A stretch of DNA of 52,949 nt from Candidatus Rokuibacteriota bacterium. GTDB taxonomy: Bacteria > JAUVQV01 > DATDCY01. Where the stretch lies: positions 1 through 52,949 of the forward strand of contig JANOHV010000145.1 of assembly GCA_031406795.1 (NCBI GenBank), read 5' to 3'. The notes beneath the pieces are model-generated. The model searched no databases. It was not told where the DNA came from and was given only the letters and a program-made list of their open reading frames with translations. Below, piece after piece: positions 24,891 through 24,973 of the stretch; position 1 is the first letter of the stretch, and the number at the start of each line of letters is the position of its first letter. The translations under genes were made by a program, and so were the position numbers.

Positions 24891-24969
24891 AATATCCGCG
24901 CAACGTTTGCGTCTACCGCGAGCATGTCCGCAAGAGCCTTTGCCGTCTTGCGGGCGAGGCGCCCGCGCC

Positions 24970-24973
<4 letters not shown>
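24887..24973 (+). CDS. Putative 28-aa junction micro-ORF (copy C) [28 protein letters not shown]
   Basis: ATGA overlap with kinase stop and ATGA overlap with regulator start. Confidence 0.6.

Follow-up and report, generated by a model that had tools for sequence, protein, structure and literature searches.

A conserved hairpin at gene junctions of a Rokuibacteriota genome as the probable terminus of a small mobile element carrying a translation relay

Here, we describe a short repeat that lies at gene junctions in a 52,949-nucleotide (nt) stretch of DNA from Candidatus Rokuibacteriota bacterium (assembly GCA_031406795.1, contig JANOHV010000145.1; this whole stretch is called the window below). 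An earlier reading of the letters alone, here called the original prediction, had noticed a hairpin in front of three start codons and had taken it for a repetitive extragenic palindrome (REP) turned into a switch at the ribosome-binding site (RBS). We favour a different reading, to which we give a probability of roughly three in four, namely that the hairpin forms the conserved 3' end of a family of mobile elements (type I), small and non-autonomous, that reside in operon junctions and carry a relay open reading frame (ORF), so that the neighbouring genes stay translated. The genome that holds the window (G000; 4.1 Mb, 278 contigs, 67% GC) was compared with metagenome loci and with a thin sampling of its lineage, comprising three congeners (G001, G002 and G003), one order-level genome and one class-level genome.

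The 23-nt motif GTCTTGCGGGYGAGGCGCCCGCG has three copies without mismatch in the window, at 24945-24967 on the forward strand and at 17187-17209 and 14143-14165 on the reverse strand, and no additional match at up to three mismatches (mean of 0.00 in 100 shuffles). Each copy ends 2 nt before an ATG (24970, 17184 and 14140), exactly as the original prediction had it. Each also forms the end of an ORF of 25-28 codons, which links two genes, starting at or beside the upstream stop codon and ending on the downstream start codon (ATGA, ATGA and TAATG in the copies called A, B and C). Copy A (24887..24973, +) is a short type I copy between genes that Pfam assigns to a PAS-HisKA-HATPase kinase and a sigma-54 activator. 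The ATG of its 28-codon relay ORF overlaps the kinase stop in the ATGA at 24887-24890, its TGA overlaps the activator ATG at 24970-24973, and its terminal hairpin GCGGGCG-AGG-CGCCCGC (24950..24966, +) holds a GAGG resembling a Shine-Dalgarno (SD) sequence at 24956-24959, 10 nt before that ATG. The regulator's conserved start is this ATG, as the empty junctions of G001 and G003 indicate; the mechanical ORF listing runs on to a TTG at 24907, inside the element. Copy B (17181..17267, -), likewise short, lies between genes with Pfam matches to a NuoI-like Fer4 protein (2x[4Fe-4S]) and NuoJ, and its 28-codon relay ORF, translated as MNLLRKMLVIRENARTGVLRLAGEAPAL up to the stop, has ATGA overlaps with the nuoI-like stop (17264-17267) and the nuoJ start (17181-17184). 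Copy C (14140..14217, -), the third short copy, lies between NuoL and NuoM genes by the same Pfam assignment and has a 25-codon relay ORF, MKFHYNIRAVRENVSLHSLAGEAPA up to the stop, which ends in TAATG on the nuoM start (14138-14142); the nuoL stop is at 14226-14228, and the AAGGGA ahead of the micro-ORF ATG comes from the nuoL-side spacer. Fold prediction gives the isolated hairpin -12.8 kcal/mol and the variant before nuoM, with a G.U pair in its stem, -10.9 kcal/mol.

The motif belongs to a repeat family, as had been supposed. Its 21-nt core has 6 exact matches in G000 and 20 at up to three mismatches, and a profile of full-length copies combined with alignment finds 8 long copies, 4 short ones and about 10 with the 3' module only; the element numbers about 24 copies in G000, with at least 8 found in G001 and 3 in G002. 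The type I consensus has the 5' end (R)TGAAATTTCTCCGCAAC, followed by a CCGCGAGAATG block and the end AAGCCTCyrTAGTCTTGCGGGCGAGGCGCCCGCGCTA. The long form, represented by the 8 long copies of G000, measures about 144 nt, and internal deletions shorten other copies to as little as 48 nt, within a family range of 48-150 nt; the four short type I copies of G000 (A, B, C and one on contig C146) are without the middle part. The roughly ten remaining copies have only the last 40 nt or so in common with type I, and in most of them the 5' part is unlike that of type I and has a hairpin of its own (type II). A metagenome scan anchored on the exact hairpin yielded 80 loci, 70 of them unique, and together with the four genomes these form a pooled sample of 99 matches, 85 of which have the upstream AGCCT module. 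The pooled counts are conservative, because the 14 matches dropped include at least six real-looking degenerate copies, and window copy B failed the filter as well. A start codon with an overlapping stop follows within 12 nt of the hairpin in 55 of the 85 copies, and in 47 of these 55 it stands exactly 3 nt past GCCCGC, the spacing seen in the window; the 55 junction copies correspond to about 30 junction sites, a few of them doubtful. The repeat is not an abundant REP indifferent to start codons, then, and the bias is strong; we would attribute it to a whole mobile unit (start codon, ORF, hairpin and stop) inserting at RTGA overlaps, and not to a hairpin co-opted on its own. Outside the genus the exact hairpin and the upstream module occur together in one metagenome-assembled genome (MAG) only (L087), from the same co-assembly as G002, and the other four of the five exact-hairpin matches, in other phyla, are without the module. 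A scan anchored on the upstream module returned at least 116 loci, nearly all due to chance, and among the matches listed the hairpin was found in three, all known copies.

What these copies preserve is a reading frame. In 39 of the 45 scorable junction copies, those with a recognisable 5' end, the length is a multiple of three, and all 39 are stop-free. The in-frame lengths are 48, 54, 69, 72, 75, 81, 84, 87, 96, 126, 132, 141, 144, 147 and 150 nt and the out-of-frame lengths 80, 100, 103 and 142 nt, so that 15 of 19 length classes are in frame (binomial p = 6e-5). Within orthologous junctions, eight of ten length differences keep the frame (18, 66, 60, 72, 3, 3, 3 and 9 nt, vs 1 and 26 nt; p = 0.003). 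The variable cores of 34 unique in-frame copies contain no stop in 651 codons of the relay frame, vs 15 and 14 stops in 617 codons of the other two frames; shuffled cores have a mean of 21.5 stops, and 0 of 1000 shuffles reach zero. The variable sites are spread evenly over the codon positions (7, 8 and 9 of 19; 28, 30 and 31 of 38), and synonymous and nonsynonymous single-base codon differences stand at 15:41, 8:17, 0:10 and 167:510, or about 1:3. The relay peptides have no match in Pfam or NCBIfam, and only two peptides of this type have been called among 5.8 billion proteins. An open frame with neutral substitutions therefore points to selection on translation and not on the peptide, and what is conserved, as far as the alignments can tell, is that ribosomes can pass without interruption from the upstream gene to the start of the next. 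The original prediction had ribosomes on the micro-ORF opening the hairpin as part of a switch; the switch found no support, but the hand-over to the next gene fits a frame that stays open without peptide conservation, and the micro-ORF does read through the hairpin and end on the next start. In the 100-nt class (L066/L147/L176, three orthologous copies from the metagenome set and G001), the ORF is in frame with the downstream gene and could add a 33-residue N-terminal extension to its protein. At L140, the upstream gene reads in frame through a bare 3' module, an element remnant turned coding.

The loop of the hairpin behaves as a selected SD sequence, in agreement with the original prediction. 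GAGG occupies it in 52 of the 55 copies with a start codon vs 11 of the 30 others (Fisher 1e-8), and in 38 of 40 vs 8 of 17 in the metagenome set alone; this comparison is confounded by descent, but GAGG is also absent from type I copies outside junctions. The remaining loops of copies without a start codon read GAAG, GAGA, GAAA and GACG, with AAAAA, TTC and TCT in copies outside the 30. Among 17 junction copies of the four genomes, collected with mismatches allowed, 14 have an identical 17-nt hairpin, and the remaining three differ by the G.U pair of copy C, a changed loop-closing base and a GAAG loop, respectively; the element bodies of the same copies vary at 30-80% of sites. At native RTGA overlaps in G000, a motif of SD type precedes 202 of about 448 starts vs a background of 17%, and the native spacing peaks at 7-8 nt with the element's 10 nt on the shoulder. 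A diverged type I copy, L180 (contig C57 of G003, about 5599-5760), has the stem GGCCGC-CUCC-GCGGCC at the same place before GCCATGG, with a loop that is the complement of GAGG, and represents one isolated instance in which a stem has survived several paired changes.

These features can be combined into a mechanism. The element lies between two RTGAs; in forward orientation the left one provides its start codon, overlapping the upstream stop, and from there the relay ORF stays open across body and hairpin until its stop, which overlaps the regenerated downstream start. Ribosomes leaving the upstream gene, or using its SD, would translate the relay ORF and melt the GC-rich hairpin; they would then terminate on the AUGA and re-initiate downstream, aided by the loop GAGG 10 nt upstream. 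Such an insertion would cost the operon little and could therefore persist. The body would be filler that needs only to be translatable, and the two ends would be conserved for mobility or for initiation and termination. In reverse orientation, the element would supply a TAG stop, the hairpin, an SD of GGAG type and a CATG start to genes on the other strand.

The case for mobility comes from comparing orthologous junctions. The kinase/regulator and nuoI/nuoJ junctions are filled in G000 and G002, unfilled in G001 and empty in G003, where the sites read ...GAGGCCATGAACG and ...GAGGCCCCGTGACG with a plain 4-nt overlap. The nuoK/nuoL junction is filled in G002 and G003 and not in G000. At nuoL/nuoM, G003 has no element and G001 a long form of 145 nt, and G000 has the short form, which corresponds to the long form with a clean internal piece of 67 nt removed. 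Of four read runs, X1, X2 and X4 have DNA contigs that bridge the elements; among the joints listed none skips one, and among the RNA pieces listed none covers one, a result that bears neither on empty alleles nor on transcription. Elements are flanked by RTGA on both sides, vs a single RTGA stop/start overlap at the empty sites of relatives. Both flanks read GTGA in L069 and L099, and unequal flanks always have GTGA on the left and ATGA on the right (L063, L103 and L135), never the reverse. Such a pattern is consistent with duplication of a 4-bp target and later selection for an ATG where the real gene begins, and we conclude that the element is, or was, in all probability mobile.

Reverse-oriented copies extend this picture. 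The reverse copy that had been reported at 45428-45449 is real and of the same family: copy D (45426..45464, -), an internally deleted type I copy, fills the whole 33-nt spacer between folD and cdhD/acsD, whose products Pfam identifies as FolD and a CdhD/AcsD-type protein. On the forward strand, folD ends in a TAG (45426-45428) formed by complementing the terminal CTA of the element, then comes the hairpin GCGGGC-AGA-GCCCGC at 45430-45444, and the complement of the element's 5' end supplies AAGGAGAGA (45451-45459) before the ATG at 45462, so that the gene strand reads TAG-T-GCGGGCAGAGCCCGC-AAGACAAAGGAGAGACC-ATG. A longer copy occupies the folD-cdhD/acsD junction at metagenome locus L177. In three reverse copies of G000 (on contigs C225 and C255, and D), it is the terminal CTA that, read on the other strand, forms the upstream gene's TAG, and in three (C225, C198 and D), the opposite strand of the element's 5' end contributes a GGAG... 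located 5-7 nt ahead of the downstream ATG; from its peptide ends we take the C198 junction to be ybaB-like/recR-like. With stop, SD and start built from element ends in this way, both orientations would leave a working junction. One may go further and picture a two-faced, operon-neutral cassette that restores the junction in either orientation and moves by recognition of ATGR overlaps with a 4-bp duplication, needing neither terminal inverted repeats nor an enzyme of its own; this is a tentative extension which we think possible but unlikely in full. If it were true, the many independent, length-variable copies could reveal how elements of the MIRU type (see below) move.

In kind, the repeat resembles the interspersed repetitive units of mycobacteria (MIRUs), which occur as tandem arrays of variable copy number; copies of our element are single and not arrayed, with one head-to-tail pair (L117). 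It is a short, dispersed repeat of operon junctions, filled at some orthologous sites and empty at others, with tetranucleotide direct repeats and, as in MIRUs, a GC-rich inverted repeat inside; 39 of the 45 scorable copies, as well as A, B and C, contain an ORF that overlaps the genes on either side at its ends (-4 coupling). According to the available text of PMC3184786, MIRUs are 40-100 bp long, occur in 40-50 copies in polycistronic operons, and are flanked by tetranucleotide direct repeats at sites that can be empty or filled; they contain GC-rich inverted repeats, and their ORFs overlap the adjacent genes at the ends. They are read as inserting with minimal impact on expression in the portions available of PMC12548453 and PMC3184786, which cite Supply et al. 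1997, and to judge by the title of a cited reference, the original MIRU site was also a kinase/regulator junction. This likeness is one of kind, drawn from descriptions, and we do not file the element in the mycobacterial MIRU sequence family. It differs from MIRUs in its phylum, in having one invariant terminal hairpin with an SD-like loop, in reverse copies that also fit operons and in a sister type (type II) that shares only the 3' module. It has no terminal inverted repeats (0 of 3 full-length copies), in contrast to the imperfect ones mentioned for MIRUs in the available part of a review. As for the mechanism of MIRU movement, none is stated in the available text of PMC12548453 and PMC3184786, and no search was made elsewhere.

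Other known systems agree with the element in part. REP2 of Neisseria, as described in the accessible part of PMC3184786, brings a promoter and a start codon that becomes fused to the ORF downstream, whereas our element relays between two cistrons, and the stop it carries falls on the start that follows. Ribosome-delivering upstream short ORFs and synthetic bicistronic designs, in the sections available of PMC12548453, likewise use a short ORF solely to bring a ribosome through structured RNA to an overlapping start; these are fixed leaders or engineered, whereas the element is a natural, mobile, multicopy cassette. Like MITEs (transposable elements of the miniature inverted-repeat kind), it is small and non-autonomous, with short direct repeats and filled and empty sites, but it has no terminal inverted repeats and no parent insertion sequence (IS) was found. 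In the literature searched, nothing relevant on such repeats in this lineage was found. By analogy, then, we regard the element as a new family of the MIRU-like, operon-junction kind. It would be a natural example outside mycobacteria of a selfish element that survives in essential operons (complex I, a two-component system and the Wood-Ljungdahl cluster) by relaying translation. Its length variants, with a frame that is open yet neutral, offer comparative evidence for selected ribosome passage across an intercistronic insert, and suggest that a bare short ORF with a hairpin and an SD can suffice to couple two genes. For annotation, it means that such micro-ORFs and starts are routinely missed or misplaced, the regulator's over-long TTG start being an example, and for synthetic biology it may provide a ready natural bicistronic coupler for high-GC contexts.

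Several points weigh against the reading as a mobile relay element. The public scans used the exact hairpin as anchor, so that conservation of the hairpin cannot be judged from them, and the Fisher and binomial figures overstate independence because the copies share descent, with many metagenome copies orthologous. Gene calls in the window are heuristics from ORFs and GC content at third codon positions (GC3), with Pfam added for eight genes, and translation of the relay ORF is something we infer from its frame. A strict relay is not indispensable, because six of the 45 scorable copies break the rule; the 142-nt copy of G001 stops 29 nt before nuoM, and an 80-nt copy overshoots. In the predicted ensembles of copies A, B and C the terminal hairpin barely forms (P 0.0-0.03), and the energies for opening positions -16 to +8 do not separate filled junctions (13.4-17.8 kcal/mol) from empty ones (10.4-22.8 kcal/mol). 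Mobility is deduced from presence and absence patterns only, and one of the absences is ambiguous. At L034, the nuoI/nuoJ junction of G001, the 'empty' site ...GGAGGAGCCCGCGCCATGA agrees with the element's 3' end GAGGCGCCCGCGCCATGA at 17 of 18 positions, and NuoI is two codons longer in G001 than in G000 and G003; instead of a virgin site, this may be the scar of a deletion after which element sequence stayed behind as the coding end of nuoI. Terminal inverted repeats of at least 8 nt are absent from all three full-length copies searched, a profile scan of G000 gave no orphan end that would indicate an autonomous parent, and the searches for a transposase of the element, described below, found none.

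Of the alternatives, the one carried by the original prediction is a regulated RBS switch, in which the hairpin hides the SD and an anti-hairpin, CCGCAAGA pairing with UCUUGCGG, toggles it, tuning downstream expression to upstream translation or to another signal. The anti-hairpin (24928..24935, +, in copy A) is the complement of TCTTGCGG at 24946-24953. It is indeed found in the copies before the sigma-54 regulator and nuoJ, where it dominates the predicted ensemble with a probability of about 1.0 in copy A (individual pairs 0.91-1.0) and 0.87 in copy B and leaves the terminal hairpin unformed; it is missing from the nuoM copy, and the copy labels of the original prediction were off by one. 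Across the 47 copies folded, the complement is perfect (8/8) in three, namely A, its ortholog L104 and L100, an ortholog of B, and it has been lost in the G002 ortholog of A; the terminal hairpin is dominant (P>0.5) in 33. Because of the CCGCAACA at the conserved 5' end, 24 of the 47 do have a complement of at least 7/8 to TCTTGCGG. The long forms contain a GCAAGACT segment able to pair with AGTCTTGC, with 71.5% of cells paired vs 24-43% in slid controls, a structure taken from one of the tested sequences; there is no covariation in this pairing, and 165 and 130 of 500 shuffles reach the observed values. The consensus fold of 22 copies likewise contains 0 compensatory pairs, and Rfam gave no match in the window at the gathering threshold and none in 18 loci at E<=1. 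Together with opening energies that are alike in filled and empty junctions, these results make a switch distinctly unlikely, and the anti-hairpin is, on the sequences compared, a copy- or subfamily-specific feature. We see no evidence for a dedicated switch; in these models the element would instead resemble a native, structured, coupling-dependent junction. On inspection, the CCGCAAGA of copy A looks like the GCAAGACT segment moved next to AGCCT by internal deletion. The fold predicted for copy A also pairs the relay's 5' part, GCGCAACGUUUGCGUC (24898-24913), with the first codons of the regulator, GACGAAACGCUUGC (24973-24990), and encloses the whole element, which may be chance.

The hairpin could also act as an intercistronic stabiliser or processing site of the mRNA that sets the levels of upstream and downstream products, as some REPs do, and such an effect might add to the coupling. 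The GC stem is stable (-12.8 kcal/mol), it always lies inside operons, and it is kept whichever way the element is oriented, as well as in type II copies devoid of a relay ORF. This would explain neither the conservation of the frame nor the GAGG bias at starts, and no intrinsic terminator is predicted at copies A, B and C, where the stem is followed by GCNATGA (5 sites in 13900-25200 vs 5.2 expected). As a full account we consider it improbable.

Equally improbable in our view is the origin that the original prediction had assumed, a REP or REPIN palindrome moved by a REP-associated tyrosine transposase (RAYT; Y1/HUH) and linked to start codons only secondarily. The likeness is real, in that both are multicopy, GC-rich extragenic palindromes without a transposase inside. 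REP palindromes have a conserved 5' GTAG, and a TAG stands 4 nt before the stem in most copies of the element, with a variable preceding base. A hairpin-bearing end shared by two element types, as here by types I and II, and a lack of terminal inverted repeats are typical of HUH-type elements. The element differs from REPs and REPINs in being a 48-150-nt unit with unlike ends and a reading frame, not a palindrome or doublet, and a strict start-codon position is not known as a REP property. No association with a RAYT was found either. The single Y1_Tnp gene of G000 is flanked by a different REP, and the element's hairpin has no match at up to three mismatches in its 3.3-kb locus. The Pfam family PF01797 is absent from all three congeners (78-95% complete), though G001 holds at least 8 copies, and it is present in G004 and G005, both of which are without the element. 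The flanking RTGA, moreover, changes on both sides together in two copies, which fits a target duplication better. The Y1 gene itself, on contig C70 (L019:1100-2250), encodes a RAYT-like protein of 165 aa (L019 1354..1851, -), and both its flanks carry tandem arrays of another GC-rich palindrome, of the GGGGCGGGGTTCA.CCCCGCCCC / GTAGGGGCGGGGTTCA.CCCCGCCCC type; this is apparently a classical REP/RAYT arrangement unrelated to the element hairpin.

Other candidate sources of movement were set aside as well. The tail of the relay peptide, which we had presumed to resemble the C-terminus of TnpB, led to the idea of a TnpB or omega-RNA end; it was dropped with 0 matches to PF07282 in G000 and 0 of 20 copies following a transposase-like ORF. 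For a derivative of IS200/IS605, a palindrome-associated transposable element (PATE), no tnpA or tnpB with the same end was found, and the single Y1 match is the unrelated one. A pattern of the 5' end gave nine matches in the four genomes: six known copies, the diverged L180, a chance match in coding sequence (L181) and one on contig C191 of G000. None of five candidates for longer proteins with the same termini scored, which is weak evidence.

Finally, it is hardly credible that the relay micro-ORFs encode a functional small protein family, for instance an accessory peptide starting with MKFLRN... and ending in ...SLCSLAGEAPAL: the strictly kept frame and the conserved peptide ends would suit this, but peptide length varies between 16 and 50 residues through free deletion of the middle, substitutions look neutral, protein family databases have no match, the conserved ends coincide with nucleotide-level termini seen also in non-coding and reverse copies, and the operon contexts are unrelated (nuo, two-component, rfbA-like and others).

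Type II copies, about 135 nt long, combine the shared tail AAGCCTC..TAGTCTTGCGGGC...GCCCGCGCTAGG with their own hairpin-bearing 5' part, TACTACTC..GAAATCATCGCGCGGCGCGACGAT. They were found on G000 contigs C71, C103, C128, C173, C185, C201 and C46 and at metagenome loci L102, L108, L125, L138, L143, L152, L154 and L161. A TGA stands just before the 5' end in 13 of 15 copies, these TGAs being candidate gene stops, and a start codon often lies 4-20 nt after CTAGG.

Two observations concern the surroundings of the window copies. The kinase upstream of copy A (21936-24890) has an N-terminal region resembling sodium:solute symporters (Pfam SSF, residues 32-135 matched) before its PAS-HisKA-HATPase part, and together with the sigma-54 activator, this SSF-PAS-HisKA-HATPase kinase presumably resembles the CbrA/CbrB architecture. 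In Pseudomonas, a small upstream ORF is translationally coupled to cbrA, according to the available text of PMC6591292. In read run X2, one contig ends exactly at the hairpin of the nuoJ copy (piece 17184-18004) and a second one breaks off at 17047; short-read assemblies seem to be interrupted by the repeat.

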